The notes: generated by a model not told the origin, from the sequence alone. 64,000 nt of DNA from Eledone cirrhosa (GCA_964016885.1 OZ024740.1:420360001-420424000), one strand, 5' to 3'. Counted from the first letter of the stretch, positions 15,764 through 39,896 are shown. Numbers and translations: made by a program.

Positions 15764-15824
<61 letters not shown>

Positions 15825-15840: not shown

Positions 15841-15915
15841 CATATATATATATATATATATATAAAATATTAAACAAATAATGAATAAACAATTCCTTAT
15901 ATTAAACAAAAAAAG

Positions 15916-16069
15916 TTCATTATTTAACGATCGTTTCTAGGATATATATGTGTTAGAGTTGGCATGCATATTCAACAGATCTATGTACAAAATTATACAA
16001 AATTATACAAACTATCAAGATTAAATATACATACCAACACATATATACGCCGTCTTCAGAAATAATGAA
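15916..16069 (-). ncRNA. Hammerhead with 115-nt stem II (family A, unit 1)
   Basis: TTCATTATTT CTGAAGA [115-nt hairpin] GAAAC gatc GTT AAATAATGAA; perfect 10-bp stem I, palindromic stem III. Confidence 0.8.
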
Positions 16070-16699
16070 ATATATTTATTGATAATAACAACAATTCAAA
16101 CTTTCAGGTCCGTTTGGGAACAAAATTGACCAATGAAAATACAAAAGGTTTAATGCCGTTCGGTGTGTGTATATACATGTAATAACCCTTACACATATTT
16201 TACAAAAATGTATGCACAACCTGTATACTCATACAAAAAGGATGGATGCAAATACAAAATTTCAAGGTTAATGTCTCTGTAAGTTTATAATGCACAGATA
16301 AGATGCGTATAGATACATAAATATGAAATAAGTGTATACACATATTTTCATACTAACACATATCCGTACAATCACACATACACGCGCGTATATGCATAAA
16401 CATACACATAAACTACAAACATACAAACACACACACACCACCACTCACATATATATATATGTGGATATAAAATCCTAAGCACATGGATATTAATTCACTC
16501 ACATAAACACTGGCACACACATTTAGATAAAGATACAGAAATTAGGTGGGAGGGGGGGGGAGAGGTCAGTATTCAACGGTTTGGGCTGCCTGCTTAATAT
16601 AGATGTATCTATAAACTAAGAAAATAAAAAATAATAATAAATAATAAATAAACATTAAAAAGGAAAGAAAAGAAAAAGAAAAAAGAAAAAAGAAAAAAG

Positions 16700-16711
16700 A
16701 AATATATCAAG

Positions 16712-16750
<39 letters not shown>

Positions 16751-16964
16751 ATATATATATATCTATATATATATATACATACATATATATATATATATAC
16801 ACATACATACACACACACACACACATATACATATACACATACACACATACAAACACATACATACATATGCACACATCCACACTTAGAACATAACATACAC
16901 ACACATATATAAACATATACATATACACACATAGATACAAATACACACATACATATAAATACAC

Positions 16965-17041
<77 letters not shown>

Positions 17042-17334
17042 CACTCATACATAGGCATATAATCACACATACTATATAGACACACATATATATACACACA
17101 TACATACACATATACCTACACTTACATACATATATACATACAGATATACACATACATACCTATATATACACACAAATACATACAGACATATATACATACA
17201 TACAGACAAATACTTACGCATCTATATATCGGTATATACATACAAACACCACTACACTCTCACACAACTCAGACATACAAAGAAAAAGGTATATACCCAT
17301 ACACATATACATATACAAATAGAGAAACATATAC

Positions 17335-17396
<62 letters not shown>

Positions 17397-17636
17397 ATAC
17401 ATATACATATACACATACACACATACACATACAAACACATACATACATGTACACACACATAGATATATATACACACACATACACACATACACATACATAT
17501 ATAGTCATACACACACATACACCTACACGAACATACACATACACATATACAAAGATATATATACACACACACACACACATACACACACACACATATATAA
17601 AAAAAAAAAAAAAAAAATAAATAAATAAATAAATAA

Positions 17637-17691
<55 letters not shown>

Positions 17692-18304
17692 CATACACAT
17701 ACATACACACATACATAGACATATATGTACATACATACATATACATAGATACATACACATACATACATACATATATATATACACACACATAGACATATAT
17801 ATACATACACACACAACATACATACACACATATATACTCATACATAGAATTAGATATATAAACATACATACATACGCACTTACATATACTCATATATACC
17901 AATACAAACGCATCCATATATGCGTATATACATAGAAACACCACTACACCCTCACCCAATTCAGATATACAAAGAAAAAGGCATATACATATACATATAT
18001 ACACGCATCAATAGAGATATATATACACATATATATATATATATATATATATGTGTGTACACACATACACTTATATGCATATACCCACACACACATACAA
18101 CCATAAATACACATACAAACACCCACATATATAAATATATACACATATATATATATATACACACACATAGAAAACAGACATGCACACATATATATTTTTT
18201 TACACATATATATACACATATATATACATATACACACCCTCATATATACACATACACATAAGTTATATTATAATAATAAATAATATATATATATATACAC
18301 ATAC

Positions 18305-18353
<49 letters not shown>

Positions 18354-18650
18354 CACACACACACATATGAATATAGACATATAAACACACATAGATATAT
18401 ATACATACATATATACAGATACATATACACACACACACATATACACATTCACATATACATGTGTGTGCATACACACATATATATACATACACACATATAC
18501 ACATAAACACACATATGTGTATACATGCACACACACACATATATCCACATAGATACGAAGATATACGTATAAATAGAGAGACATACATATATATACACGC
18601 ACACACATATACATACATACATACACACACATATATATATATACATATAC

Positions 18651-18720
<70 letters not shown>

Positions 18721-18900
18721 AGACATAGACATACACATACATATACACACATGCATATATACACACATATACACATACATACACACACATATATATATAC
18801 ACACAATCATACATTCTTATTTGCATGCGCATATATGTATTTTTATATTCAGATATAAATACCCAAATATATATACACCTACCTACATATATATTCATAC
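16700..18900. repeat. Complex (TA)/(CA)/(TACA) microsatellite field inside the PLE 3' UTR, repeated in every unit
   Basis: Same pattern at about 23630-25810, 30535-32715 and 37450-39620. Confidence 0.9.
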
Positions 18901-20067
18901 AAACACGCTTACAAACACAGATGATAATAGTATGGGGGAAAGGGGGGGGGGTTGGAGAAGGGGATTATAGTAAATATATGTTTCAAGAAACATAGAATAT
19001 TATCCGTATCTAGATCCAATGTATGTTTATACATAGTATCAGTGTTAGGAAATACAATAAACAAGGAATAAGGCGAAATTTATGCAATTCAAAATAAATA
19101 AGTATACCATTAATTATATGTTAACTAAACTAAAGATAGTTAACATATTGATTTCTAAGGTGTAAATTAGTTAGGTTTATAATATTTGAAGCAGAATTTT
19201 GAAGTTAAATAGTAGTAGAGTATTAATTATAGTATAACTAAATTAAAGTTAATAACTTTATGGTATCAATATTAGGAAATGAATTTAGTAATAGGGAAAA
19301 AACAAATAAAGTATTACATCGGTAGTAGAATATAAAATATAGGTTAATTAAATTAAAAATTATATATTTATTTCTATAGTATATGTTAATTAGGTATATA
19401 ATAAATAAAACAGATATTGTATTTTATCAATAGCAGAATATAATTATATGCAAATAGAAATCAAAATTAATACATATATATATACATATACATACACATA
19501 TATATATACACATATATATACACATATATATATACATATATACACATATACATACGCACATACATACACATACACATATACATATACATATTTTTTCAAA
19601 AATTGCAAAGAATATATTAACTAGGTATAAATCCAAAACACATCCCATTCTATGATTAGATGACATTCTGCAATTCGTCTGTATAAGGATATTAATTTTA
19701 AGCCAATTAAATTAAATTTTTAGGTTGATTAAAATTAAAACCAAATTATAAATATATTTCTAAAATGTATATTAATTAGGTCTATATTACTAAAAATTAT
19801 TTCTCTGTCATTGGATACACTATATTTTGTTATATTTTATCTGTAAAAGAATTATAATAAAAAAAAAAAAAATTATAATAAAAGGTTTAAATAAATTAAA
19901 ATTAATCTATAAATTAAAATACTAAGTATATATTAGTAATATTTAAAGGTTTTTCACAATTTATGATTACATAATATTTTATATTCTCATCTGTAATAGA
20001 ATTTTAATTAAATTAAATTTATAGGTTAACTAACATTTAAATTAAATTAATTTCTAAAATAATGTTA

Positions 20068-22491
20068 TTAATTAGGTTTATAATATTTAAATGTTTTTTT
20101 TAATTTATGATTACACGATATAATTAATTCCTGTCGTTTATTTAATAGGATATCCTTAGATTTCATTATTTCAAATAGTTCTTGGGAACATAATCTACAT
20201 TCATTTCTATTATTTTGATAAGGGGTGGCTCTTTTGAGCACACTCCAGGTCAAATCATATTCTATATTCTTATTTTTATAACTATTGATTTTTTCTGCTA
20301 GAGATGTTGTATTAGCCAGTGCGGCATTTTTAAAACTATGCTTATGGGTATTAAACCTTGTCTTAAAATTGTTAGAGGTAGCTCCTATATATGAGCAAAT
20401 AGAATCTTTAGTTTTAACATTACATTTATAGACTATGTTGTTAACAAGACAATTCCCTTTTAATGGGCAGTTTGCTTTGTTTCTACAGTTACAACCTTTC
20501 GTTAATTCCGTATTTGAGGAGATATTATGGTTAATTTGATGTACTGGTGGTATACTTATGGTTTTCTTACATTTATATGCATTATAGGCACTTATATTTT
20601 GTTTTATGTTATTTGTTGTAGAGTATGAGAATTTAACTGTAGACCTATTTAAGATTTGATGGTATTTGTGGTTTGGCGGGAAGTTTTTCTCTAGGATATA
20701 AAAAAATTTTTTAGCAATATTATCCTTAATTTGTAAATTAAATGGAGCATTATACCAAGTAACCCGTCTATTACGGTTTCTATGTTGTTTATTATTTTTA
20801 TTATTTTTATAGGTTGTATCGTGATTTTTACTAGGAGGATTAATGTTAATGAACTCACCACAACCATTTTTAGTTATATTTGTAGATTTAGGTGTTTTAT
20901 CCTTTTTATTAGGAGTTTTATTAATATGATAAGTAGTTTTTTGAGAGTTACTATACTTTATATTAGAAGATTTGGTATTTTGGGGTATAGTGTGGGTGGC
21001 ATTTAGGTGTGTACTTTTCATTTGGTGTTTGTTGGTAATATTAGGTTGTATGCTTTCAGTATTTTTAGTAGAAGGTATATATTCTAATCTATTTTTGTGG
21101 CCACTTCTATCTAGAGCTTCGTTATAGAAGGTCGCATTTTTATCAAAAACATCTTGGTTAGAAGAAAGGTTAGAAATTCTAAGTGATATATTATATGCAA
21201 GGTTTTTAAGGATAGATTTAGGGTGATTAGATTGTGAGTGTATGTAATGTAAGTTTTGGTTTGGTTTATGGTAAGGTTGGTAGATACCCGTAGCTAAATC
21301 TAAAGTTATATCTAGGAAATTTACTACTTTACTTGTTTTTTCAAAAGTAATATTAAGATTATAATAGTCTTTAAGGAAAGTTCTAATATGTTTTTTGTTT
21401 TTTTCAATTTCTGAAAGGCTAAGGTTGTTAGAAAGAAGAAGACAGTCATCACGATATAAACCACCTTTGAGGTGGGGAAAGGAGGCATTTATGTTGAAAA
21501 GGAGAAAGAGGCCCACAAGATCAGTAATTTGGGCGGAATCACTTGAACCCATAGTAATATCAAAAAGATTACTATATGTGTTTCTGGTCCAGTATTCATT
21601 CTGAAATTCAATAAGTGTTAGTCTAGCATGTGTAATAATATTAATGTCATCCAAAGTTAAGTTAGATCTATTTTTAGCAAATATCAATGCTTTGTTCAGG
21701 AGTATAGGTGATATAGAAGAATAGTAATTATCTATATCAAATTGTAGAAATGAAGCAGAAGATTTACATCTAATATTTTTAAACCAGTTAATTACCTGGG
21801 AGGTGTTTTCCCAGAGTGGTAAAATAACGTATTTTCTTATTTGTGGGATGACTCTATCCAAAATTTTTTTGCTAATTATTCCAATATCTGATTTGGAGGG
21901 ACATATAAGTCTAATAGAAGGATTTGAGTTAAAATTTGATTTATGATCCTTCAGGTTGAAGTGTGGTCTTTTCAATGCCAAAGGTTCAGTTCTATCTTCA
22001 ATGTTTAGTTTTTTTACTATGTTGTGTGTTTTGTTGTTGATGTTGGTGAGTGACCCATTATTAGATTTTTTATAATTTTTTCTGAGTTCTTTATATATGA
22101 ATTCATTATAATGTTCAATATCCATATGATACAAGTTACCAGTTTTGTCCGAGTGGACATGGAATTTTTTAGACTTTTTTAGGTCCAATAGGGTAGAATC
22201 AAGGTCCTTTTGAAAGACGGATTTATACTTTTTAAATTTGAGGTGTTTAATTAAATTAAAAAGGTCTTTCTCGAAGTCTTCAAGTAAAAAGTTGTGTGGT
22301 GGATTCTTGTAAGTATTGAAATCATACATATATTTCCGATCTGCTTGTTTAGATTTTCTATCGAAGTGGTAGGCTCTCCATCTAACCCTTCTGATAAAAT
22401 TATTAGTTTTCTGAATCATAAGGAGTAAGAAGTCATCCTTAGAAGGTATTGGTATGTTTTTTAAAGAGGTTCCTAAATATTGTTTTTCCAT
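20068..22491 (-). CDS. PLE (Naiad-type) reverse transcriptase + C-terminal GIY-YIG endonuclease; first ATG at 22491 (track starts at TTG 22512)
   Basis: SLKNIPIP/RRVRWRA N-terminus, FDIDNYY, ITMGS, GGLYRDD, FLDITL, CNC..CPLKGNC, VY..SYIGAT..R..H, CRLC..E..LN..CNH. Confidence 0.95.
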   Translation of the reverse strand: MEKQYLGTSLKNIPIPSKDDFLLLMIQKTNNFIRRVRWRAYHFDRKSKQADRKYMYDFNTYKNPPHNFLLEDFEKDLFNLIKHLKFKKYKSVFQKDLDSTLLDLKKSKKFHVHSDKTGNLYHMDIEHYNEFIYKELRKNYKKSNNGSLTNINNKTHNIVKKLNIEDRTEPLALKRPHFNLKDHKSNFNSNPSIRLICPSKSDIGIISKKILDRVIPQIRKYVILPLWENTSQVINWFKNIRCKSSASFLQFDIDNYYSSISPILLNKALIFAKNRSNLTLDDINIITHARLTLIEFQNEYWTRNTYSNLFDITMGSSDSAQITDLVGLFLLFNINASFPHLKGGLYRDDCLLLSNNLSLSEIEKNKKHIRTFLKDYYNLNITFEKTSKVVNFLDITLDLATGIYQPYHKPNQNLHYIHSQSNHPKSILKNLAYNISLRISNLSSNQDVFDKNATFYNEALDRSGHKNRLEYIPSTKNTESIQPNITNKHQMKSTHLNATHTIPQNTKSSNIKYSNSQKTTYHINKTPNKKDKTPKSTNITKNGCGEFININPPSKNHDTTYKNNKNNKQHRNRNRRVTWYNAPFNLQIKDNIAKKFFYILEKNFPPNHKYHQILNRSTVKFSYSTTNNIKQNISAYNAYKCKKTISIPPVHQINHNISSNTELTKGCNCRNKANCPLKGNCLVNNIVYKCNVKTKDSICSYIGATSNNFKTRFNTHKHSFKNAALANTTSLAEKINSYKNKNIEYDLTWSVLKRATPYQNNRNECRLCSQELFEIMKSKDILLNKRQELIISCNHKLKKTFKYYKPN

Positions 22492-22832
22492 TGTGATATG
22501 GATGATGGACAATTGAAAGAGCTCAACTAAATGTATATGGGTTTATAAAATCATACATATATATGTATATACATAAATATAAAATTAATACACACATACA
22601 GTACAAAAATACGAATATTTCCGTGAAAATAGGAGCAAAATTATGTAGATAAATCTACCAAGAGTTTACGGTAGTGTCCAATCCGTATGAAGAACTCAAT
22701 GTATTCCGGATATCATGGAAAGAAGAAATGTAATGAAAAATCACTTTCGGTGAAAGATAAACGGTATACAGAGTCAAGATAAAATATTAAACAAATAATG
22801 AATAAACAATTCCTTATATTAAACAAAAAAAG

Positions 22833-22986
22833 TTCATTATTTAACGATCGTTTCTAGGATATATATGTGTTAGAGTTGGCATGCATATTCAACAGATCTA
22901 TGTACAAAATTATACAAAATTATACAAACTATCAAGATTAAATATACATACCAACACATATATACGCCGTCTTCAGAAATAATGAA
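22833..22986 (-). ncRNA. Hammerhead with 115-nt stem II (family A, unit 2)
   Basis: Identical to 15916-16069. Confidence 0.8.
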
Positions 22987-23632
22987 ATATATTTATTGAT
23001 AATAACAACAATTCAAACTTTCAGGTCCGTTTGGGAACAAAATTGACCAATGAAAATACAAAAGGTTTAATGCCGTTCGGTGTGTGTATATACATGTAAT
23101 AACCCTTACACATATTTTACAAAAATGTATGCACAACCTGTATACTCATACAAAAAGGATGGATGCAAATACAAAATTTCAAGGTTAATGTCTCTGTAAG
23201 TTTATAATGCACAGATAAGATGCGTATAGATACATAAATATGAAATAAGTGTATACACATATTTTCATACTAACACATATCCGTACAATCACACATACAC
23301 GCGCGTATATGCATAAACATACACATAAACTACAAACATACAAACACACACACACCACCACTCACATATATATATATGTGGATATAAAATCCTAAGCACA
23401 TGGATATTAATTCACTCACATAAACACTGGCACACACATTTAGATAAAGATACAGAAATTAGGTGGGAGGGGGGGGAGAGGTCAGTATTCAACGGTTTGG
23501 GCTGCCTGCTTAATATAGATGTATCTATAAACTAAGAAAATAAAAAATAATAATAAATAATAAATAAACATTAAAAAGGAAAGAAAAGAAAAAGAAAAAA
23601 GAAAAGAAAAAAGAAAAAAGAAATATATCAAG

Positions 23633-23667
<35 letters not shown>

Positions 23668-23881
23668 ATATATATATATCTATATATATATATACATACA
23701 TATATATATATATATACACATACATACACACACACACACACATATACATATACACATACACACATACAAACACATACATACATATGCACACATCCACACT
23801 TAGAACATAACATACACACACATATATAAACATATACATATACACACATAGATACAAATACACACATACATATAAATACAC

Positions 23882-23956
<75 letters not shown>

Positions 23957-24243
23957 CACTCATACATAGGCATATAATCACACATACTATATAGACACAC
24001 ATATATATACACACATACATACACATATACCTACACTTACATACATATATACATACAGATATACACATACATACCTATATATACACACAAATACATACAG
24101 ACATATATACATACATACAGACAAATACTTACGCATCTATATATCGGTATATACATACAAACACCACTACACTCTCACACAACTCAGACATACAAAGAAA
24201 AAGGTATATACCCATACACATATACATATACAAATAGAGAAAC

Positions 24244-24304
<61 letters not shown>

Positions 24305-24540
24305 CATACATATACATATACACATACACACATACACATACAAACACATACATACATGTACACACACATAGATATATATACACACACATACACACATACA
24401 CATACATATATAGTCATACACACACATACACCTACACGAACATACACATACACATATACAAAGATATATATACACACACACACACACATACACACACACA
24501 CATATATAAAAAAAAAAAAAAAAAAAAAAAAATAAAGATA

Positions 24541-24594
<54 letters not shown>

Positions 24595-25553
24595 CATACA
24601 CATACATACACACATACATAGACATATATGTACATACATACATATACATAGATACATACACATACATACATACATATATATATACACACACATAGACATA
24701 TATATACATACACACACAACATACATACACACATATATACTCATACATAGAATTAGATATATAAACATACATACATACGCACTTACATATACTCATATAT
24801 ACCAATACAAACGCATCCATATATGCGTATATACATAGAAACACCACTACACCCTCACCCAATTCAGATATACAAAGAAAAAGGCATATACATATACATA
24901 TATACACGCATCAATAGAGATATATATACACATATATATATATATATATATATGTGTGTACACACATACACTTATATGCATATACCCACACACACATACA
25001 ACCATAAATACACATACAAACACCCACATATATAAATATATACACATATATATATATATACACACACATAGAAAACAGACATGCACACATATATATTTTT
25101 TTACACATATATATACACATATATATACATATACACACCCTCATATATACACATACACATAAGTTATATTATAATAATAAATAATATATATATATATACA
25201 CATACATATATATATATATATATACATATGTATATATATACATATATATATATATACACACACACACATATGAATATAGACATATAAACACACATAGATA
25301 TATATACATACATATATACAGATACATATACACACACACACATATACACATTCACATATACATGTGTGTGCATACACACATATATATACATACACACATA
25401 TACACATAAACACACATATGTGTATACATGCACACACACACATATATCCACATAGATACGAAGATATACGTATAAATAGAGAGACATACATATATATACA
25501 CGCACACACATATACATACATACATACACACACATATATATATATACATATAC

Positions 25554-25622
<69 letters not shown>

Positions 25623-26974
25623 CAGACATAGACATACACATACATATACACACATGCATATATACACACATATACACATACATACACACACATATATATA
25701 TACACACAATCATACATTCTTATTTGCATGCGCATATATGTATTTTTATATTCAGATATAAATACCCAAATATATATACACCTACCTACATATATATTCA
25801 TACAAACACGCTTACAAACACAGATGATAATAGTATGGGGGAAAGGGGGGGGGGGGGGTTGGAGAAGGGGATTATAGTAAATATATGTTTCAAGAAACAT
25901 AGAATATTATCCGTATCTAGATCCAATGTATGTTTATACATAGTATCAGTGTTAGGAAATACAATAAACAAGGAATAAGGCGAAATTTATGCAATTCAAA
26001 ATAAATAAGTATACCATTAATTATATGTTAACTAAACTAAAGATAGTTAACATATTGATTTCTAAGGTGTAAATTAGTTAGGTTTATAATATTTGAAGCA
26101 GAATTTTGAAGTTAAATAGTAGTAGAGTATTAATTATAGTATAACTAAATTAAAGTTAATAACTTTATGGTATCAATATTAGGAAATGAATTTAGTAATA
26201 GGGAAAAAACAAATAAAGTATTACATCGGTAGTAGAATATAAAATATAGGTTAATTAAATTAAAAATTATATATTTATTTCTATAGTATATGTTAATTAG
26301 GTATATAATAAATAAAACAGATATTGTATTTTATCAATAGCAGAATATAATTATATGCAAATAGAAATCAAAATTAATACATATATATATACATATACAT
26401 ACACATATATATATACACATATATATACACATATATATATACATATATACACATATACATACGCACATACATACACATACACATATACATATACATATTT
26501 TTTCAAAAATTGCAAAGAATATATTAACTAGGTATAAATCCAAAACACATCCCATTCTATGATTAGATGACATTCTGCAATTCGTCTGTATAAGGATATT
26601 AATTTTAAGCCAATTAAATTAAATTTTTAGGTTGATTAAAATTAAAACCAAATTATAAATATATTTCTAAAATGTATATTAATTAGGTCTATATTACTAA
26701 AAATTATTTCTCTGTCATTGGATACACTATATTTTGTTATATTTTATCTGTAAAAGAATTATAATAAAAAAAAAAAAAATTATAATAAAAGGTTTAAATA
26801 AATTAAAATTAATCTATAAATTAAAATACTAAGTATATATTAGTAATATTTAAAGGTTTTTCACAATTTATGATTACATAATATTTTATATTCTCATCTG
26901 TAATAGAATTTTAATTAAATTAAATTTATAGGTTAACTAACATTTAAATTAAATTAATTTCTAAAATAATGTTA

Positions 26975-29398
26975 TTAATTAGGTTTATAATATTTAAATG
27001 TTTTTTTTAATTTATGATTACACGATATAATTAATTCCTGTCGTTTATTTAATAGGATATCCTTAGATTTCATTATTTCAAATAGTTCTTGGGAACATAA
27101 TCTACATTCATTTCTATTATTTTGATAAGGGGTGGCTCTTTTGAGCACACTCCAGGTCAAATCATATTCTATATTCTTATTTTTATAACTATTGATTTTT
27201 TCTGCTAGAGATGTTGTATTAGCCAGTGCGGCATTTTTAAAACTATGCTTATGGGTATTAAACCTTGTCTTAAAATTGTTAGAGGTAGCTCCTATATATG
27301 AGCAAATAGAATCTTTAGTTTTAACATTACATTTATAGACTATGTTGTTAACAAGACAATTCCCTTTTAATGGGCAGTTTGCTTTGTTTCTACAGTTACA
27401 ACCTTTCGTTAATTCCGTATTTGAGGAGATATTATGGTTAATTTGATGTACTGGTGGTATACTTATGGTTTTCTTACATTTATATGCATTATAGGCACTT
27501 ATATTTTGTTTTATGTTATTTGTTGTAGAGTATGAGAATTTAACTGTAGACCTATTTAAGATTTGATGGTATTTGTGGTTTGGCGGGAAGTTTTTCTCTA
27601 GGATATAAAAAAATTTTTTAGCAATATTATCCTTAATTTGTAAATTAAATGGAGCATTATACCAAGTAACCCGTCTATTACGGTTTCTATGTTGTTTATT
27701 ATTTTTATTATTTTTATAGGTTGTATCGTGATTTTTACTAGGAGGATTAATGTTAATGAACTCACCACAACCATTTTTAGTTATATTTGTAGATTTAGGT
27801 GTTTTATCCTTTTTATTAGGAGTTTTATTAATATGATAAGTAGTTTTTTGAGAGTTACTATACTTTATATTAGAAGATTTGGTATTTTGGGGTATAGTGT
27901 GGGTGGCATTTAGGTGTGTACTTTTCATTTGGTGTTTGTTGGTAATATTAGGTTGTATGCTTTCAGTATTTTTAGTAGAAGGTATATATTCTAATCTATT
28001 TTTGTGGCCACTTCTATCTAGAGCTTCGTTATAGAAGGTCGCATTTTTATCAAAAACATCTTGGTTAGAAGAAAGGTTAGAAATTCTAAGTGATATATTA
28101 TATGCAAGGTTTTTAAGGATAGATTTAGGGTGATTAGATTGTGAGTGTATGTAATGTAAGTTTTGGTTTGGTTTATGGTAAGGTTGGTAGATACCCGTAG
28201 CTAAATCTAAAGTTATATCTAGGAAATTTACTACTTTACTTGTTTTTTCAAAAGTAATATTAAGATTATAATAGTCTTTAAGGAAAGTTCTAATATGTTT
28301 TTTGTTTTTTTCAATTTCTGAAAGGCTAAGGTTGTTAGAAAGAAGAAGACAGTCATCACGATATAAACCACCTTTGAGGTGGGGAAAGGAGGCATTTATG
28401 TTGAAAAGGAGAAAGAGGCCCACAAGATCAGTAATTTGGGCGGAATCACTTGAACCCATAGTAATATCAAAAAGATTACTATATGTGTTTCTGGTCCAGT
28501 ATTCATTCTGAAATTCAATAAGTGTTAGTCTAGCATGTGTAATAATATTAATGTCATCCAAAGTTAAGTTAGATCTATTTTTAGCAAATATCAATGCTTT
28601 GTTCAGGAGTATAGGTGATATAGAAGAATAGTAATTATCTATATCAAATTGTAGAAATGAAGCAGAAGATTTACATCTAATATTTTTAAACCAGTTAATT
28701 ACCTGGGAGGTGTTTTCCCAGAGTGGTAAAATAACGTATTTTCTTATTTGTGGGATGACTCTATCCAAAATTTTTTTGCTAATTATTCCAATATCTGATT
28801 TGGAGGGACATATAAGTCTAATAGAAGGATTTGAGTTAAAATTTGATTTATGATCCTTCAGGTTGAAGTGTGGTCTTTTCAATGCCAAAGGTTCAGTTCT
28901 ATCTTCAATGTTTAGTTTTTTTACTATGTTGTGTGTTTTGTTGTTGATGTTGGTGAGTGACCCATTATTAGATTTTTTATAATTTTTTCTGAGTTCTTTA
29001 TATATGAATTCATTATAATGTTCAATATCCATATGATACAAGTTACCAGTTTTGTCCGAGTGGACATGGAATTTTTTAGACTTTTTTAGGTCCAATAGGG
29101 TAGAATCAAGGTCCTTTTGAAAGACGGATTTATACTTTTTAAATTTGAGGTGTTTAATTAAATTAAAAAGGTCTTTCTCGAAGTCTTCAAGTAAAAAGTT
29201 GTGTGGTGGATTCTTGTAAGTATTGAAATCATACATATATTTCCGATCTGCTTGTTTAGATTTTCTATCGAAGTGGTAGGCTCTCCATCTAACCCTTCTG
29301 ATAAAATTATTAGTTTTCTGAATCATAAGGAGTAAGAAGTCATCCTTAGAAGGTATTGGTATGTTTTTTAAAGAGGTTCCTAAATATTGTTTTTCCAT
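26975..29398 (-). CDS. PLE RT + GIY-YIG, copy 2
   Basis: Protein identical to copy 1. Confidence 0.95.
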   Translation of the reverse strand: MEKQYLGTSLKNIPIPSKDDFLLLMIQKTNNFIRRVRWRAYHFDRKSKQADRKYMYDFNTYKNPPHNFLLEDFEKDLFNLIKHLKFKKYKSVFQKDLDSTLLDLKKSKKFHVHSDKTGNLYHMDIEHYNEFIYKELRKNYKKSNNGSLTNINNKTHNIVKKLNIEDRTEPLALKRPHFNLKDHKSNFNSNPSIRLICPSKSDIGIISKKILDRVIPQIRKYVILPLWENTSQVINWFKNIRCKSSASFLQFDIDNYYSSISPILLNKALIFAKNRSNLTLDDINIITHARLTLIEFQNEYWTRNTYSNLFDITMGSSDSAQITDLVGLFLLFNINASFPHLKGGLYRDDCLLLSNNLSLSEIEKNKKHIRTFLKDYYNLNITFEKTSKVVNFLDITLDLATGIYQPYHKPNQNLHYIHSQSNHPKSILKNLAYNISLRISNLSSNQDVFDKNATFYNEALDRSGHKNRLEYIPSTKNTESIQPNITNKHQMKSTHLNATHTIPQNTKSSNIKYSNSQKTTYHINKTPNKKDKTPKSTNITKNGCGEFININPPSKNHDTTYKNNKNNKQHRNRNRRVTWYNAPFNLQIKDNIAKKFFYILEKNFPPNHKYHQILNRSTVKFSYSTTNNIKQNISAYNAYKCKKTISIPPVHQINHNISSNTELTKGCNCRNKANCPLKGNCLVNNIVYKCNVKTKDSICSYIGATSNNFKTRFNTHKHSFKNAALANTTSLAEKINSYKNKNIEYDLTWSVLKRATPYQNNRNECRLCSQELFEIMKSKDILLNKRQELIISCNHKLKKTFKYYKPN

Positions 29399-29739
29399 TG
29401 TGATATGGATGATGGACAATTGAAAGAGCTCAACTAAATGTATATGGGTTTATAAAATCATACATATATATGTATATACATAAATATAAAATTAATACAC
29501 ACATACAGTACAAAAATACGAATATTTCCGTGAAAATAGGAGCAAAATTATGTAGATAAATCTACCAAGAGTTTACGGTAGTGTCCAATCCGTATGAAGA
29601 ACTCAATGTATTCCGGATATCATGGAAAGAAGAAATGTAATGAAAAATCACTTTCGGTGAAAGATAAACGGTATACAGAGTCAAGATAAAATATTAAACA
29701 AATAATGAATAAACAATTCCTTATATTAAACAAAAAAAG

Positions 29740-29893
29740 TTCATTATTTAACGATCGTTTCTAGGATATATATGTGTTAGAGTTGGCATGCATATTCAAC
29801 AGATCTATGTACAAAATTATACAAAATTATACAAACTATCAAGATTAAATATACATACCAACACATATATACGCCGTCTTCAGAAATAATGAA
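29740..29893 (-). ncRNA. Hammerhead with 115-nt stem II (family A, unit 3)
   Basis: Identical to 15916-16069. Confidence 0.8.
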
Positions 29894-30533
29894 ATATATT
29901 TATTGATAATAACAACAATTCAAACTTTCAGGTCCGTTTGGGAACAAAATTGACCAATGAAAATACAAAAGGTTTAATGCCGTTCGGTGTGTGTATATAC
30001 ATGTAATAACCCTTACACATATTTTACAAAAATGTATGCACAACCTGTATACTCATACAAAAAGGATGGATGCAAATACAAAATTTCAAGGTTAATGTCT
30101 CTGTAAGTTTATAATGCACAGATAAGATGCGTATAGATACATAAATATGAAATAAGTGTATACACATATTTTCATACTAACACATATCCGTACAATCACA
30201 CATACACGCGCGTATATGCATAAACATACACATAAACTACAAACATACAAACACACACACACCACCACTCACATATATATATATGTGGATATAAAATCCT
30301 AAGCACATGGATATTAATTCACTCACATAAACACTGGCACACACATTTAGATAAAGATACAGAAATTAGGTGGGAGGGGGGGAGAGGTCAGTATTCAACG
30401 GTTTGGGCTGCCTGCTTAATATAGATGTATCTATAAACTAAGAAAATAAAAAATAATAATAAATAATAAATAAACATTAAAAAGGAAAGAAAAGAAAAAG
30501 AAAAAAGAAAAAAGAAAAAAGAAATATATCAAG

Positions 30534-30572
<39 letters not shown>

Positions 30573-30786
30573 ATATATATATATCTATATATATATATAC
30601 ATACATATATATATATATATACACATACATACACACACACACACACATATACATATACACATACACACATACAAACACATACATACATATGCACACATCC
30701 ACACTTAGAACATAACATACACACACATATATAAACATATACATATACACACATAGATACAAATACACACATACATATAAATACAC

Positions 30787-30859
<73 letters not shown>

Positions 30860-31152
30860 CACTCATACATAGGCATATAATCACACATACTATATAGACA
30901 CACATATATATACACACATACATACACATATACCTACACTTACATACATATATACATACAGATATACACATACATACCTATATATACACACAAATACATA
31001 CAGACATATATACATACATACAGACAAATACTTACGCATCTATATATCGGTATATACATACAAACACCACTACACTCTCACACAACTCAGACATACAAAG
31101 AAAAAGGTATATACCCATACACATATACATATACAAATAGAGAAACATATAC

Positions 31153-31214
<62 letters not shown>

Positions 31215-31453
31215 ATACATATACATATACACATACACACATACACATACAAACACATACATACATGTACACACACATAGATATATATACACACACATAC
31301 ACACATACACATACATATATAGTCATACACACACATACACCTACACGAACATACACATACACATATACAAAGATATATATACACACACACACACACATAC
31401 ACACACACACATATATAAAAAAAAAAAAAAAAAATAAATAAATAAATAAATAA

Positions 31454-31510
<57 letters not shown>

Positions 31511-32121
31511 CATACACATACATACACACATACATAGACATATATGTACATACATACATATACATAGATACATACACATACATACATACATATATATATA
31601 CACACACATAGACATATATATACATACACACACAACATACATACACACATATATACTCATACATAGAATTAGATATATAAACATACATACATACGCACTT
31701 ACATATACTCATATATACCAATACAAACGCATCCATATATGCGTATATACATAGAAACACCACTACACCCTCACCCAATTCAGATATACAAAGAAAAAGG
31801 CATATACATATACATATATACACGCATCAATAGAGATATATATACACATATATATATATATATATATATGTGTGTACACACATACACTTATATGCATATA
31901 CCCACACACACATACAACCATAAATACACATACAAACACCCACATATATAAATATATACACATATATATATATATACACACACATAGAAAACAGACATGC
32001 ACACATATATATTTTTTTACACATATATATACACATATATATACATATACACACCCTCATATATACACATACACATAAGTTATATTATAATAATAAATAA
32101 TATATATATATATACACATAC

Positions 32122-32170
<49 letters not shown>

Positions 32171-32467
32171 CACACACACACATATGAATATAGACATATA
32201 AACACACATAGATATATATACATACATATATACAGATACATATACACACACACACATATACACATTCACATATACATGTGTGTGCATACACACATATATA
32301 TACATACACACATATACACATAAACACACATATGTGTATACATGCACACACACACATATATCCACATAGATACGAAGATATACGTATAAATAGAGAGACA
32401 TACATATATATACACGCACACACATATACATACATACATACACACACATATATATATATACATATAC

Positions 32468-32535
<68 letters not shown>

Positions 32536-33882
32536 AGACATAGACATACACATACATATACACACATGCATATATACACACATATACACATACATACACA
32601 CACATATATATATACACACAATCATACATTCTTATTTGCATGCGCATATATGTATTTTTATATTCAGATATAAATACCCAAATATATATACACCTACCTA
32701 CATATATATTCATACAAACACGCTTACAAACACAGATGATAATAGTATGGGGGAAAGGGGGGGGGGTTGGAGAAGGGGATTATAGTAAATATATGTTTCA
32801 AGAAACATAGAATATTATCCGTATCTAGATCCAATGTATGTTTATACATAGTATCAGTGTTAGGAAATACAATAAACAAGGAATAAGGCGAAATTTATGC
32901 AATTCAAAATAAATAAGTATACCATTAATTATATGTTAACTAAACTAAAGATAGTTAACATATTGATTTCTAAGGTGTAAATTAGTTAGGTTTATAATAT
33001 TTGAAGCAGAATTTTGAAGTTAAATAGTAGTAGAGTATTAATTATAGTATAACTAAATTAAAGTTAATAACTTTATGGTATCAATATTAGGAAATGAATT
33101 TAGTAATAGGGAAAAAACAAATAAAGTATTACATCGGTAGTAGAATATAAAATATAGGTTAATTAAATTAAAAATTATATATTTATTTCTATAGTATATG
33201 TTAATTAGGTATATAATAAATAAAACAGATATTGTATTTTATCAATAGCAGAATATAATTATATGCAAATAGAAATCAAAATTAATACATATATATATAC
33301 ATATACATACACATATATATATACACATATATATACACATATATATATACATATATACACATATACATACGCACATACATACACATACACATATACATAT
33401 ACATATTTTTTCAAAAATTGCAAAGAATATATTAACTAGGTATAAATCCAAAACACATCCCATTCTATGATTAGATGACATTCTGCAATTCGTCTGTATA
33501 AGGATATTAATTTTAAGCCAATTAAATTAAATTTTTAGGTTGATTAAAATTAAAACCAAATTATAAATATATTTCTAAAATGTATATTAATTAGGTCTAT
33601 ATTACTAAAAATTATTTCTCTGTCATTGGATACACTATATTTTGTTATATTTTATCTGTAAAAGAATTATAATAAAAAAAAAAAAAATTATAATAAAAGG
33701 TTTAAATAAATTAAAATTAATCTATAAATTAAAATACTAAGTATATATTAGTAATATTTAAAGGTTTTTCACAATTTATGATTACATAATATTTTATATT
33801 CTCATCTGTAATAGAATTTTAATTAAATTAAATTTATAGGTTAACTAACATTTAAATTAAATTAATTTCTAAAATAATGTTA

Positions 33883-36306
33883 TTAATTAGGTTTATAATA
33901 TTTAAATGTTTTTTTTAATTTATGATTACACGATATAATTAATTCCTGTCGTTTATTTAATAGGATATCCTTAGATTTCATTATTTCAAATAGTTCTTGG
34001 GAACATAATCTACATTCATTTCTATTATTTTGATAAGGGGTGGCTCTTTTGAGCACACTCCAGGTCAAATCATATTCTATATTCTTATTTTTATAACTAT
34101 TGATTTTTTCTGCTAGAGATGTTGTATTAGCCAGTGCGGCATTTTTAAAACTATGCTTATGGGTATTAAACCTTGTCTTAAAATTGTTAGAGGTAGCTCC
34201 TATATATGAGCAAATAGAATCTTTAGTTTTAACATTACATTTATAGACTATGTTGTTAACAAGACAATTCCCTTTTAATGGGCAGTTTGCTTTGTTTCTA
34301 CAGTTACAACCTTTCGTTAATTCCGTATTTGAGGAGATATTATGGTTAATTTGATGTACTGGTGGTATACTTATGGTTTTCTTACATTTATATGCATTAT
34401 AGGCACTTATATTTTGTTTTATGTTATTTGTTGTAGAGTATGAGAATTTAACTGTAGACCTATTTAAGATTTGATGGTATTTGTGGTTTGGCGGGAAGTT
34501 TTTCTCTAGGATATAAAAAAATTTTTTAGCAATATTATCCTTAATTTGTAAATTAAATGGAGCATTATACCAAGTAACCCGTCTATTACGGTTTCTATGT
34601 TGTTTATTATTTTTATTATTTTTATAGGTTGTATCGTGATTTTTACTAGGAGGATTAATGTTAATGAACTCACCACAACCATTTTTAGTTATATTTGTAG
34701 ATTTAGGTGTTTTATCCTTTTTATTAGGAGTTTTATTAATATGATAAGTAGTTTTTTGAGAGTTACTATACTTTATATTAGAAGATTTGGTATTTTGGGG
34801 TATAGTGTGGGTGGCATTTAGGTGTGTACTTTTCATTTGGTGTTTGTTGGTAATATTAGGTTGTATGCTTTCAGTATTTTTAGTAGAAGGTATATATTCT
34901 AATCTATTTTTGTGGCCACTTCTATCTAGAGCTTCGTTATAGAAGGTCGCATTTTTATCAAAAACATCTTGGTTAGAAGAAAGGTTAGAAATTCTAAGTG
35001 ATATATTATATGCAAGGTTTTTAAGGATAGATTTAGGGTGATTAGATTGTGAGTGTATGTAATGTAAGTTTTGGTTTGGTTTATGGTAAGGTTGGTAGAT
35101 ACCCGTAGCTAAATCTAAAGTTATATCTAGGAAATTTACTACTTTACTTGTTTTTTCAAAAGTAATATTAAGATTATAATAGTCTTTAAGGAAAGTTCTA
35201 ATATGTTTTTTGTTTTTTTCAATTTCTGAAAGGCTAAGGTTGTTAGAAAGAAGAAGACAGTCATCACGATATAAACCACCTTTGAGGTGGGGAAAGGAGG
35301 CATTTATGTTGAAAAGGAGAAAGAGGCCCACAAGATCAGTAATTTGGGCGGAATCACTTGAACCCATAGTAATATCAAAAAGATTACTATATGTGTTTCT
35401 GGTCCAGTATTCATTCTGAAATTCAATAAGTGTTAGTCTAGCATGTGTAATAATATTAATGTCATCCAAAGTTAAGTTAGATCTATTTTTAGCAAATATC
35501 AATGCTTTGTTCAGGAGTATAGGTGATATAGAAGAATAGTAATTATCTATATCAAATTGTAGAAATGAAGCAGAAGATTTACATCTAATATTTTTAAACC
35601 AGTTAATTACCTGGGAGGTGTTTTCCCAGAGTGGTAAAATAACGTATTTTCTTATTTGTGGGATGACTCTATCCAAAATTTTTTTGCTAATTATTCCAAT
35701 ATCTGATTTGGAGGGACATATAAGTCTAATAGAAGGATTTGAGTTAAAATTTGATTTATGATCCTTCAGGTTGAAGTGTGGTCTTTTCAATGCCAAAGGT
35801 TCAGTTCTATCTTCAATGTTTAGTTTTTTTACTATGTTGTGTGTTTTGTTGTTGATGTTGGTGAGTGACCCATTATTAGATTTTTTATAATTTTTTCTGA
35901 GTTCTTTATATATGAATTCATTATAATGTTCAATATCCATATGATACAAGTTACCAGTTTTGTCCGAGTGGACATGGATTTTTTTAGACTTTTTTAGGTC
36001 CAATAGGGTAGAATCAAGGTCCTTTTGAAAGACGGATTTATACTTTTTAAATTTGAGGTGTTTAATTAAATTAAAAAGGTCTTTCTCGAAGTCTTCAAGT
36101 AAAAAGTTGTGTGGTGGATTCTTGTAAGTATTGAAATCATACATATATTTCCGATCTGCTTGTTTAGATTTTCTATCGAAGTGGTAGGCTCTCCATCTAA
36201 CCCTTCTGATAAAATTATTAGTTTTCTGAATCATAAGGAGTAAGAAGTCATCCTTAGAAGGTATTGGTATGTTTTTTAAAGAGGTTCCTAAATATTGTTT
36301 TTCCAT
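33883..36306 (-). CDS. PLE RT + GIY-YIG, copy 3
   Basis: One visible difference (KKIHV vs KKFHV). Confidence 0.95.
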   Translation of the reverse strand: MEKQYLGTSLKNIPIPSKDDFLLLMIQKTNNFIRRVRWRAYHFDRKSKQADRKYMYDFNTYKNPPHNFLLEDFEKDLFNLIKHLKFKKYKSVFQKDLDSTLLDLKKSKKIHVHSDKTGNLYHMDIEHYNEFIYKELRKNYKKSNNGSLTNINNKTHNIVKKLNIEDRTEPLALKRPHFNLKDHKSNFNSNPSIRLICPSKSDIGIISKKILDRVIPQIRKYVILPLWENTSQVINWFKNIRCKSSASFLQFDIDNYYSSISPILLNKALIFAKNRSNLTLDDINIITHARLTLIEFQNEYWTRNTYSNLFDITMGSSDSAQITDLVGLFLLFNINASFPHLKGGLYRDDCLLLSNNLSLSEIEKNKKHIRTFLKDYYNLNITFEKTSKVVNFLDITLDLATGIYQPYHKPNQNLHYIHSQSNHPKSILKNLAYNISLRISNLSSNQDVFDKNATFYNEALDRSGHKNRLEYIPSTKNTESIQPNITNKHQMKSTHLNATHTIPQNTKSSNIKYSNSQKTTYHINKTPNKKDKTPKSTNITKNGCGEFININPPSKNHDTTYKNNKNNKQHRNRNRRVTWYNAPFNLQIKDNIAKKFFYILEKNFPPNHKYHQILNRSTVKFSYSTTNNIKQNISAYNAYKCKKTISIPPVHQINHNISSNTELTKGCNCRNKANCPLKGNCLVNNIVYKCNVKTKDSICSYIGATSNNFKTRFNTHKHSFKNAALANTTSLAEKINSYKNKNIEYDLTWSVLKRATPYQNNRNECRLCSQELFEIMKSKDILLNKRQELIISCNHKLKKTFKYYKPN

Positions 36307-36647
36307 TGTGATATGGATGATGGACAATTGAAAGAGCTCAACTAAATGTATATGGGTTTATAAAATCATACATATATATGTATATACATAAATATAAAAT
36401 TAATACACACATACAGTACAAAAATACGAATATTTCCGTGAAAATAGGAGCAAAATTATGTAGATAAATCTACCAAGAGTTTACGGTAGTGTCCAATCCG
36501 TATGAAGAACTCAATGTATTCCGGATATCATGGAAAGAAGAAATGTAATGAAAAATCACTTTCGGTGAAAGATAAACGGTATACAGAGTCAAGATAAAAT
36601 ATTAAACAAATAATGAATAAACAATTCCTTATATTAAACAAAAAAAG

Positions 36648-36801
36648 TTCATTATTTAACGATCGTTTCTAGGATATATATGTGTTAGAGTTGGCATGCA
36701 TATTCAACAGATCTATGTACAAAATTATACAAAATTATACAAACTATCAAGATTAAATATACATACCAACACATATATACGCCGTCTTCAGAAATAATGA
36801 A
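36648..36801 (-). ncRNA. Hammerhead with 115-nt stem II (family A, unit 4)
   Basis: Identical to 15916-16069. Confidence 0.8.
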
Positions 36802-37448
36802 ATATATTTATTGATAATAACAACAATTCAAACTTTCAGGTCCGTTTGGGAACAAAATTGACCAATGAAAATACAAAAGGTTTAATGCCGTTCGGTGTGT
36901 GTATATACATGTAATAACCCTTACACATATTTTACAAAAATGTATGCACAACCTGTATACTCATACAAAAAGGATGGATGCAAATACAAAATTTCAAGGT
37001 TAATGTCTCTGTAAGTTTATAATGCACAGATAAGATGCGTATAGATACATAAATATGAAATAAGTGTATACACATATTTTCATACTAACACATATCCGTA
37101 CAATCACACATACACGCGCGTATATGCATAAACATACACATAAACTACAAACATACAAACACACACACACCACCACTCACATATATATATATGTGGATAT
37201 AAAATCCTAAGCACATGGATATTAATTCACTCACATAAACACTGGCACACACATTTAGATAAAGATACAGAAATTAGGTGGGAGGGGGGGGGAGAGGTCA
37301 GTATTCAACGGTTTGGGCTGCCTGCTTAATATAGATGTATCTATAAACTAAGAAAATAAAAAATAATAATAAATAATAAATAAACATTAAAAAGGAAAGA
37401 AAAGAAAAAGAAAAAAGAAAAGAAAAAAGAAAAAAGAAATATATCAAG

Positions 37449-37483
<35 letters not shown>

Positions 37484-37697
37484 ATATATATATATCTATA
37501 TATATATATACATACATATATATATATATATACACATACATACACACACACACACACATATACATATACACATACACACATACAAACACATACATACATA
37601 TGCACACATCCACACTTAGAACATAACATACACACACATATATAAACATATACATATACACACATAGATACAAATACACACATACATATAAATACAC

Positions 37698-37772
<75 letters not shown>

Positions 37773-38059
37773 CACTCATACATAGGCATATAATCACACA
37801 TACTATATAGACACACATATATATACACACATACATACACATATACCTACACTTACATACATATATACATACAGATATACACATACATACCTATATATAC
37901 ACACAAATACATACAGACATATATACATACATACAGACAAATACTTACGCATCTATATATCGGTATATACATACAAACACCACTACACTCTCACACAACT
38001 CAGACATACAAAGAAAAAGGTATATACCCATACACATATACATATACAAATAGAGAAAC

Positions 38060-38118
<59 letters not shown>

Positions 38119-38318
38119 CATACATATACATATACACATACACACATACACATACAAACACATACATACATGTACACACACATAGATATATATACACACA
38201 CATACACACATACACATACATATATAGTCATACACACACATACACCTACACGAACATACACATACACATATACAAAGATATATATACACACACACACACA
38301 CATACACACACACACATA

Positions 38319-38352
<34 letters not shown>

Positions 38353-38353
38353 A

Positions 38354-38412
<59 letters not shown>

Positions 38413-39371
38413 CATACACATACATACACACATACATAGACATATATGTACATACATACATATACATAGATACATACACATACATACATACATATATATA
38501 TACACACACATAGACATATATATACATACACACACAACATACATACACACATATATACTCATACATAGAATTAGATATATAAACATACATACATACGCAC
38601 TTACATATACTCATATATACCAATACAAACGCATCCATATATGCGTATATACATAGAAACACCACTACACCCTCACCCAATTCAGATATACAAAGAAAAA
38701 GGCATATACATATACATATATACACGCATCAATAGAGATATATATACACATATATATATATATATATATATGTGTGTACACACATACACTTATATGCATA
38801 TACCCACACACACATACAACCATAAATACACATACAAACACCCACATATATAAATATATACACATATATATATATATACACACACATAGAAAACAGACAT
38901 GCACACATATATATTTTTTTACACATATATATACACATATATATACATATACACACCCTCATATATACACATACACATAAGTTATATTATAATAATAAAT
39001 AATATATATATATATACACATACATATATATATATATATATACATATGTATATATATACATATATATATATATACACACACACACATATGAATATAGACA
39101 TATAAACACACATAGATATATATACATACATATATACAGATACATATACACACACACACATATACACATTCACATATACATGTGTGTGCATACACACATA
39201 TATATACATACACACATATACACATAAACACACATATGTGTATACATGCACACACACACATATATCCACATAGATACGAAGATATACGTATAAATAGAGA
39301 GACATACATATATATACACGCACACACATATACATACATACATACACACACATATATATATATACATATAC

Positions 39372-39439
<68 letters not shown>

Positions 39440-39824
39440 AGACATAGACATACACATACATATACACACATGCATATATACACACATATACACATACATA
39501 CACACACATATATATATACACACAATCATACATTCTTATTTGCATGCGCATATATGTATTTTTATATTCAGATATAAATACCCAAATATATATACACCTA
39601 CCTACATATATATTCATACAAACACGCTTACAAACACAGATGATAATAGTATGGGGGAAAGGGGGGGTTGGAGAAGGGGATTATAGTAAATATATGTTTC
39701 AAGAAACATAGAATATTATCCGTATCTAGATCCAATGTATGTTTATACATAGTATCAGTGTTAGGAAATACAATAAACAAGGAATAAGGCGAAATTTATG
39801 CAATTCAAAATAAATAAGTATACC

Positions 39825-39879
<55 letters not shown>

Positions 39880-39896
<17 letters not shown>

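Follow-up and report, generated by a model that had tools for sequence, protein, structure and literature searches.

The stretch of DNA analysed here (the window) comprises 64,000 nt from Eledone cirrhosa (GCA_964016885.1 OZ024740.1:420360001-420424000); all coordinates are window positions. Its central feature is an array of head-to-tail units of a Penelope-like retroelement (PLE), which is nested in the 3′ untranslated region (UTR) microsatellite of an older relative (Table 1). A preliminary description had reported a young PLE tandem at 15864..39827 with three intact open reading frames (ORFs), encoding proteins identical save for one residue, and hammerhead ribozymes at every boundary, spaced 6917, 6907 and 6908 nt apart. 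All of this was borne out: there are three 807-amino-acid (aa) ORFs with motifs of the Hydra clade of PLEs, spread over 3.47 units; the sole protein difference lies at codon 110 (I or F); and four identical matches to a hammerhead descriptor stand at the reported positions. Judged from its sequence, the element is probably a still competent Hydra-clade Penelope-like retrotransposon, and the array a young tandem which is plausibly still capable of transposition.

Table 1. The array, its parts and the related copies in the window. Unit lengths are measured from predicted cut to predicted cut; T0 and types A and B are described in the text.
Feature	Position	Strand	Details
Young array	15864..39827	-	3.47 head-to-tail units of Hydra-clade PLE; (TA)n on both flanks
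T0, 5′-truncated unit	36658..39827	-	3′ UTR part only, type B; upstream pseudo-long terminal repeat (pseudo-LTR), 3170 nt
Full unit 1	29750..36657	-	6908 nt; ORF allele I110; 3′ UTR type A
Full unit 2	22843..29749	-	6907 nt; ORF allele F110; 3′ UTR type B, nearer A at the two most upstream variable loci
Full unit 3	15926..22842	-	6917 nt; ORF allele F110; 3′ UTR type A
3′ terminus	15864..15925	-	~61 nt past last cut; folds back on stem I 3′ strand; end is the putative reverse transcription start (+61 site)
ORF 1	33883..36306	-	807 aa; telomerase-like reverse transcriptase, 105-aa low-confidence linker, CxCX5C, C-terminal GIY-YIG nuclease
ORF 2	26975..29398	-	807 aa
ORF 3	20068..22491	-	807 aa; identical to ORF 2
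Leader (unit 3)	22492..22842	-	351 nt, alike in every unit; contains six upstream ATGs and, at ~+195-197 (22648-22646), a second terminus of the family
3′ UTR (unit 3)	15926..20067	-	4142 nt; internal duplications and large imperfect (TA/TG)n block
Type I hammerhead 1	36648..36801	-	predicted cut between 36658 and 36657
Type I hammerhead 2	29740..29893	-	predicted cut between 29750 and 29749
Type I hammerhead 3	22833..22986	-	predicted cut between 22843 and 22842
Type I hammerhead 4	15916..16069	-	predicted cut between 15926 and 15925
Older relative (host copy), upstream part	39828..41216	-	inverted leader fragment 41109-41216, ORF codons 2-339, 3′ UTR start, microsatellite; 92% aa identity
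Older relative (host copy), downstream part	14876..15863	-	remainder of 3′ UTR; GUA hammerhead with cut before 14937; terminates at +61 site, followed by (TA)n
Second older copy	41932..48815	-	5′-truncated; frameshifted ORF 47463-48809; hammerhead cut before 42117; end at +196 site
Solo inverted pair of family termini	60951..61480	.	centred on hammerhead core; arms end at +61 and +196 sites; (TA)n on both sides

The coding part of the array is almost uniform. Across the three full units, the 3731-nt segments running from the cut to an anchor (leader, ORF and beginning of the 3′ UTR) vary at a single base, in codon 110. The units are nonetheless not interchangeable, as their 3′ UTR microsatellites are of two alternating types (A and B), and the run from a type B 3′ UTR through the next ORF to a type A 3′ UTR (B-ORF-A) forms a near-exact repeat of 10 kb. 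In unit 3, 1600 nt are made up of 50 (T[AG])≥6 runs. Since the long 3′ UTR, grown by internal duplication and imperfect (TA/TG)n, is nearly identical in four copies between ORF and tail, the (TA/TG)n block would have to have been retrotransposed with the element. All three internal boundaries carry a complete leader, and at none is there (TA)n or a junction scar at the +61 or +196 position (counted from the cut). Each leader contains the same candidate 73-nt GT-AG intron (22599-22527 in unit 3, minus strand), putative removal of which would eliminate four of the six upstream ATGs; introns in the leader have precedent in Penelope.

The AlphaFold model of the 807-aa protein (predicted local distance difference test score (pLDDT) 86; predicted template modelling score 0.84) retrieves TERT structures at ranks 1-8 in Foldseek (E 1.2e-8 to 1.4e-7), and in an alignment of homologs which took in 80 of 118 database matches its catalytic residues agree with 74-80 of the 80 sequences, D252, D348 and D349 being invariant in all of them. 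For the last 147 aa (domain model pLDDT 93) the best VIA-align match is the I-TevI catalytic domain (Z 8.8, root-mean-square deviation 2.3 over 89 aligned residues), followed by T4 EndoII (7.4) and UvrC (5.9); Foldseek places GIY-YIG nucleases at ranks 1-7 with E of 0.25-0.65 and no match at E ≤ 0.001, and the Pfam GIY-YIG model scores this domain at E 0.0073, which is under the Pfam cut-off. Pfam gave no match for the whole 807-aa protein and none at a meaningful level for six homologs. The closest database proteins are 40-48% identical (40-45% for the top match), indicating that the young family is absent from those sets. Numerous further entries in the ORF listing, of the form (YI/VC)n, were dismissed as open frames of the microsatellite.

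The Hydra clade is reported to be diagnosed by an RWK motif, lack of conservation of GxKF/Y, replacement of DKG by DKT, a CxCX5C linker, CxxC and CxH motifs flanking the E and N residues of the nuclease, absence of CCHH, and (TA)n targets (PMC8557442); going by the range known for the clade, the host would probably be an aquatic invertebrate. In the present protein the RWK-type motif is RWR at 37-39 (43 of the 80 homologs have K at residue 39, and 27 have R), DKG is replaced by D115-K116-T117, the linker cysteines are C667, C669 and C675, and C765, C768, C793 and H795 supply CxxC and CxH around E771 and N784. CCHH is not conserved: one cysteine lies between the IVY and YIG strands (in the ‘KC’ of the C690 region) and one just before YIG, neither of which is kept in the homolog alignment when inspected by eye. 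The array's two ends, together with all seven 3′ ends of the family in the window, adjoin (TA)n. The more general traits of endonuclease-positive PLEs are likewise present, that is, a telomerase-like reverse transcriptase in a single ORF with a C-terminal GIY-YIG domain, a type I hammerhead in a pseudo-LTR, partial tandems with pseudo-LTRs, 5′ truncation, inverted 5′ pieces (41109-41216 and 60951-61480) and an optional tail. By the diagnostic motif list the element is assigned to the Hydra clade of PLEs. The same source notes that Hydra-clade elements tend to be short (<3 kb), a tendency rather than a diagnostic from which the 6.9-kb unit departs; by these sequence comparisons we regard it as a new, unusually long family within the known clade. 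The linker between reverse transcriptase and nuclease is also long (105 aa, where the 80 homologs have a median of 17 aa), and PLEs of 6-7.6 kb have been reported in shrimp, with the clade not given (PMC3124438).

The four array hammerheads are identical, consisting of a 10-bp stem I, CUGAAGA, a 115-nt stem II region, GAA, a palindromic stem III and a GUU triplet; by the type I descriptor, the first nucleotides after the predicted cuts are 36657, 29749, 22842 and 15925. Eight descriptor matches were found in the window (four in the array, two in older relatives and two elsewhere), compared with means over 100 local shuffles of the window of 0.01 motifs with a stem I of at least 8 bp and 0.03 with a stem I of at least 4 bp. 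Uridine at the cut site occurs in 10 of the 26 Hydra rows of File S2 of Craig et al. (PMC8557442), and GUU is thus normal for the clade. Rfam listed no hammerhead family, either among 150 of its 250 matches or among the three matches of a second scan, probably because stem II spans 115 nt; the matches listed are microsatellite-driven microRNA models, under their cut-offs. Covariation in the proximal part of stem II lends weak support, with five of ten variable pairs among five close sequences staying paired by one-sided changes and none by two-sided changes. The position of the cut as given in the preliminary description agrees with ours, but the unit-length RNA that it would release begins 351 nt, rather than about 340 nt, upstream of the ATG; such a self-cut RNA would lack a cap and carry the six upstream ATGs.

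Although the core is intact and the ribozyme region folds well (z -6.4 and -5.1), neither minimum-energy fold is a hammerhead. Relative to the free ensemble, forcing the active fold on the monomer costs 3.8 kcal/mol if the tail is left off and 5.5-6.6 kcal/mol if downstream sequence is included (2.7-8.3 kcal/mol in the older copies), and in all five variants the models pair the tail with the 3′ strand of stem I (-6.8 to -14.5 kcal/mol, values that carry no shuffle control). An intermolecular duplex of the palindromic stem III is predicted at -11.8 kcal/mol for the 10-mer. The hammerhead is therefore predicted to misfold as a monomer, and we infer from these models that its cleavage would be slow and conditional. 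Dimeric cleavage via a palindromic stem III has been described, with minimal PLE hammerheads cutting poorly in vitro, according to PMC4209133, and eight of nine retrozyme dimers assayed did not cut, as reported in a preprint (10.64898/2026.07.22.740005).

The history of the array is recorded in its four homologous 3.2-kb 3′ UTR segments, T0 to T3, the types of which run B-A-B-A. The edit distances between T0 and T2 (18) and between T1 and T3 (13) contrast with those of the other four pairs (35, 37, 39 and 38). Thirty alignment columns favour the alternating split, against two and one for the other two splits, with 25 columns being singletons or of other kinds; by locus, six of the 11 variable loci favour 02|13, one favours 01|23, one favours 03|12 and three tie. 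Two loci precede the first diagnostic site on its upstream side, and at both of them T2 lies closer to T3 than to T0 (4 vs 7 and 1 vs 3), as expected of a recombinant. The ORFs follow a different pattern. At codon 110, ORF 1 shares I with the older relative, and across the 80 homologs this position is F in one and I in 19; F is therefore derived and is common to the adjacent ORFs 2 and 3. A clean duplication of a two-unit dimer predicts that ORF 1 equals ORF 3, yet it is ORF 2 that equals ORF 3, and unequal exchange would fit both patterns without extra mutations. Our preferred interpretation, to which we assign a probability of roughly 0.6, is accordingly worded as a two-stage history: insertion as a partial tandem, followed by growth through unequal exchange at the DNA level. 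That transposable elements can form tandems by unequal exchange between their own terminal repeats is well established (10.1101/158386), and the process is also discussed for PLE termini in a preprint (10.64898/2026.07.22.740005). We found no report of PLE arrays grown by unequal crossing-over or by rolling circle in a literature search at the level of titles and the starts of abstracts, which is no proof of absence.

The first stage of this history is informed by the element-sense 3′ ends of the family, of which there are seven in the window. Three lie at the +61 site (15864, 14876 and 60953) and four at the +195-197 site in young-unit numbering (41932, 41417, 41216 and 61480); none of the seven lies at the ribozyme cut. 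As these ends lie past the cut, the template would have been intact across the hammerhead, either uncut or re-ligated. Each of two inverted structures has one end of each kind, which is the known pattern of a tail at one end only, the tail here being ~135 nt compared with the usual 30-40. In the Poseidon element PAc, reverse transcription is reported to start at two internal sites on unprocessed RNA, hammerhead mutants insert normally in vitro, protein is required for cleavage, and the cut is matched by no RNA-seq ends (PMC11167929). A second, distant Hydra-like family is represented by a remnant at 8336-10826 (38-40% aa identity), which has an inverted N-terminal piece at 10376-10591 (plus strand), a nuclease end at 9963-10259 (minus strand), a 1.4-kb 3′ UTR and a hammerhead (core 8525, cut before 8476) whose stem II region measures 30 nt. 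It ends 140 nt past its own cut, in (TA)n.

Taken together, the proposed sequence of events would begin with nicking of a (TA)n run by the reverse transcriptase-nuclease, with reverse transcription primed ~61 nt downstream of the hammerhead on RNA that is uncut (or re-ligated) there. Copying of one whole unit plus 3.2 kb of the next would give a partial tandem of the usual kind, B-ORF-A, with two long pseudo-LTRs. These 3.2-kb direct repeats would then permit unequal DNA exchange in at least two events, for example from B-A to B-B-A and then between B-A and B-B-A, with the outcome of B-A-B-A, ORF alleles I,F,F and seamless junctions. The hammerhead would act as a slow conditional cutter, needing either two paired palindromic stems III or help from protein, with the downstream tail competing for stem I; it may trim read-through RNA, but would not be required to explain the array.

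Several observations weigh against this interpretation. Every 3′ UTR difference sits in a homopolymer or short-repeat run, which is prone to consensus error and recurrent slippage, and the six of eight informative loci are a modest majority (P ~0.02 for the named split and ~0.06 for any split, by a binomial estimate), with single loci siding with 03|12 and 01|23. The I/F site lies at the boundary of an A-run and a T and could itself be a consensus error, in which case the array would reduce to a simple 13.8-kb duplication of a dimer, whatever the route. The seven 3′ ends stem from only ~5 insertion events, and re-ligated circles likewise predict ends beyond the cut, such that the starting step of reverse transcription leaves room for a circular template. 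The energy models ignore the tertiary core. Finally, an assembler joining two alleles would yield the same sequence.

This last point leads to the alternative that the array is partly an assembly artefact, in which two alleles (for example B-A and B-B-A) have been joined across the common 3′ UTR; each chromosome would then truly carry one or two ORFs, and B-A-B-A would never have existed. In favour of this, a left and a right half with allele-sized differences are set apart by the I | F,F split and by the 01|23 locus (18712), B-ORF-A is a near-exact repeat of 10 kb, and PLE tandems are reported to trouble assemblies (Craig et al., PMC8557442). The alignments shown contain no N and no seam, however, both homologs would need to carry a very young insertion, and at least one multi-ORF allele is still required to account for the ORF-B-ORF-A half. 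We consider such a merge unlikely, but it is to be taken seriously.

The two-unit pattern could alternatively have arisen through RNA in one reverse transcription event, templated either by a 13.8-kb dimeric circle for which the outer hammerheads were cut and the middle hammerhead was skipped or by a 24-kb uncut read-through RNA from an already alternating source. This would account for the period of two units, for junctions that are seamless and for a start 61 nt past a hammerhead, and the palindromic stem III would let any two hammerheads of a transcript pair, at the duplex energy given above. The route seems distinctly improbable to us, since it predicts that ORF 1 equals ORF 3 whereas ORFs 2 and 3 are the identical pair and ORF 1 has the ancestral base; it further requires 24 kb of continuous reverse transcription and a pre-existing A/B source array, and T0-T2 and T1-T3 still stand 18 and 13 edits apart. 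In its most specific form, the array would be the direct product of a ribozyme-made 13.8-kb dimeric circle, formed by non-adjacent hammerheads pairing via their stems III, of which ~24 kb was copied in a single rolling pass from 61 nt past the re-ligated junction, exporting kilobases of microsatellite. That proposal is very doubtful, and under it the single ORF difference would have to stem from a consensus error or have been acquired later; were it true, the alternation would be the mark left in the genome by an autonomous PLE that retrotransposes by rolling circle.

The preliminary description had proposed that read-through RNA would process itself into unit-length RNAs able to circularise or to template further tandem copies, and that the locus is likely an active master. 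Applied to this array, that gives a monomer version of the circular route, in which rolling-circle reverse transcription of unit-length circles would have written it. The cleavage-and-circle idea is an existing hypothesis (PMC4209133), and the intact hammerhead at each boundary, the GUU sites shared with other Hydra hammerheads and the fact that a re-ligated circle would permit a start at +61 are all in keeping with it. Of that proposal, the hammerhead at each boundary stands, but unit-length or circular RNA as the builder of the array does not agree with the B-A-B-A order, the 0/7 3′ ends at the cut, or the disfavoured monomer fold (3.8-6.6 kcal/mol above the ensemble). The alternation speaks most directly against it, as a single monomer circle that is re-read cannot alternate: one template read four times would give identical units with private errors, not 30 columns against two and one. 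The weak cleavage in vitro of minimal PLE hammerheads and the uncut retrozyme dimers noted above also count against this route, as does the lack of daughter copies within the window; we regard it as hardly tenable. Serial insertion of separate copies into one another's ends, which could draw on the nesting of the family in its relatives' (TA)n, the reported ability of PAc to nick its own pLTR (PMC11167929) and the dimers produced by double insertion in Drosophila (10.1101/158386), is largely refuted by the three of three internal boundaries with a complete leader and without (TA)n or scar at +61/+196.

The left flank of the array (40096-39846) corresponds to the first part of the older 3′ UTR at 83% identity and the right flank (15782-14873) to the second part at 95%. 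Homologous replacement of the older copy was rejected, as the older 3′ UTR continues on both sides of the array, and a single old partial tandem was rejected because (TA)n, unrelated DNA and an inverted piece lie between the two older copies. The young and older ORFs differ by 64 synonymous and 27 non-synonymous codons in 337, which is consistent with selection on a working lineage. With insertions removed, the 3′ UTR of the older relative measures roughly 1.2-1.3 kb; it contains a 235-nt tandem duplication ending in a degenerate hammerhead 5′ half (42228-42686 and 15048-15507). No dispersed identical daughter copy of the array unit is present in the window, the nearest dispersed pieces being 86-92% identical. 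In the solo inverted pair of termini, folding back at the hammerhead core loses stem I, and the structure resembles a PLE by-product akin to a miniature inverted-repeat transposable element.

The 3′ UTR of the second older copy is split at its microsatellite by a long interspersed nuclear element (LINE; ~43.0-47.1 kb, plus strand), which we take to be of the RTE clade. Six copies of this LINE, 90-97% identical, are present (12313-14793, 43589-47117, 50806-52995, 54860-56855, 58884-60653 and 61963-62585); they are mostly 5′-truncated and (TA)n-bordered, several have (TGA)n tails, and their reverse transcriptase ORF has a PHD-finger-like insert. These RTE copies and the SINE-like repeats may be of a cephalopod kind.

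Other hammerhead-like sequences are scattered through the window. Three copies of a ~360-nt non-coding repeat (49407-50290 and 58280-58636, plus strand), two of them in tandem with a 517-nt period, are flanked by (TA)n and contain compact Hydra-style hammerhead cores at 49602, 50119 and 58470, which are not among the strict descriptor matches; they may be a non-autonomous PLE derivative or a retrozyme. An inverted pair of another element's end occupies 53266-53616, with a hammerhead-like core per arm (53352 minus, 53527 plus) and flanking (TA)n, and a type I match at 54200-54340 (minus strand; core 54327, 49-nt stem II region, cut before 54257) ends in (TA)n. A 3′ fragment of a PLE of another clade lies at 57100-58190 (minus strand), with a GIY-YIG domain above the Pfam cut-off (177-aa ORF 57559-58092), a CxxxxCxxC linker and a hammerhead-like core at 57360. 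Further afield are a 29-nt satellite at 107-2367 (76 copies, 94% matches), possibly subtelomeric, with an extreme C-rich strand skew, and a near-perfect 300-nt palindrome at 11386-11686 (99.7% self-complementary) between two (TA)n runs, which is probably another fold-back element end. An ARAGORN scan returned no genes.

With its intact identical ORFs, two sharply defined reverse transcription start sites and unit variants that record the history of the array, the locus offers a clean natural test case for how PLEs make tandems and for what their hammerheads do. Any duplication of a unit will automatically place a hammerhead at each boundary, which is therefore no evidence of multimer formation at the RNA level. 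The 3′ UTRs further suggest that kilobases of (TA/TG)n can travel within a PLE, which would thereby seed microsatellites as well as future targets for itself. No biochemical study of the Hydra clade was found in the literature since 2022.

The system itself is not new, and its head-to-tail arrangement is ordinary for PLEs, of which tandems of at least two ORFs with hammerheads in pseudo-LTRs are reported to be typical (PMC8557442; PMC11167929). What is unusual is a unit more than twice the listed Hydra lengths, a 4.1-kb 3′ UTR with its own (TA)n targets, the 115-nt stem II, and the nesting in an older relative's 3′ UTR. In the account of Craig et al. 2021 (PMC8557442), Hydra-clade members (Hydra-1_Obim, Hydra-1_Ajap, Penelope-17_HM) resemble the present element in having a single ORF with reverse transcriptase and C-terminal GIY-YIG, the RWK-type motif, DKT, CxCX5C and (TA)n targets, and their hammerheads are also type I, stem III being a short palindrome and stem II being flanked on either side by an extra nucleotide. 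They differ in length, the 27 families of File S1 measuring 1080-3045 nt, and in their hammerheads, which are tabulated at 80-100 nt including flanks, compared with ~154 nt in the array, where stem II is much longer; by eye, the array family is also set apart from Hydra-1_Obim.

PAc (Poseidon, Anolis carolinensis) as described by Frangieh et al. 2024 (PMC11167929) shares the tandem repeats, the two internal reverse transcription starts downstream of the hammerhead that result in an optional tail, the AT-rich targets and, in agreement with our interpretation of the array, a hammerhead that is dispensable for insertion. It belongs to another clade, and its hammerhead overlaps the ORF start with sites tens of nucleotides apart, whereas both sites of the array family, as judged from genomic ends only, would lie in the 351-nt leader ~135 nt apart. 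PLE hammerheads and non-LTR retrozymes (Cervera and De la Pena 2014, PMC4209133; Li et al. 2026 preprint) are likewise portrayed as having a type I hammerhead once per tandem unit, a palindromic stem III and proposed circular intermediates. Retrozymes are short and non-coding, unlike the autonomous 6.9-kb unit with its 807-aa ORF, which is therefore not a retrozyme; relative to both groups, stem I of the array hammerhead is long (10 bp), stem II is very long, and there is no G10.1-C11.1 pair directly after the core. The closest parallel for growth at the DNA level is that of tandem transposable elements formed by unequal exchange (McGurk and Barbash, 10.1101/158386), in which terminal direct repeats give rise to shared-repeat tandems with seamless junctions, as proposed here; that work concerns LTR elements and double insertions in Drosophila, and the word Penelope is absent from its text.

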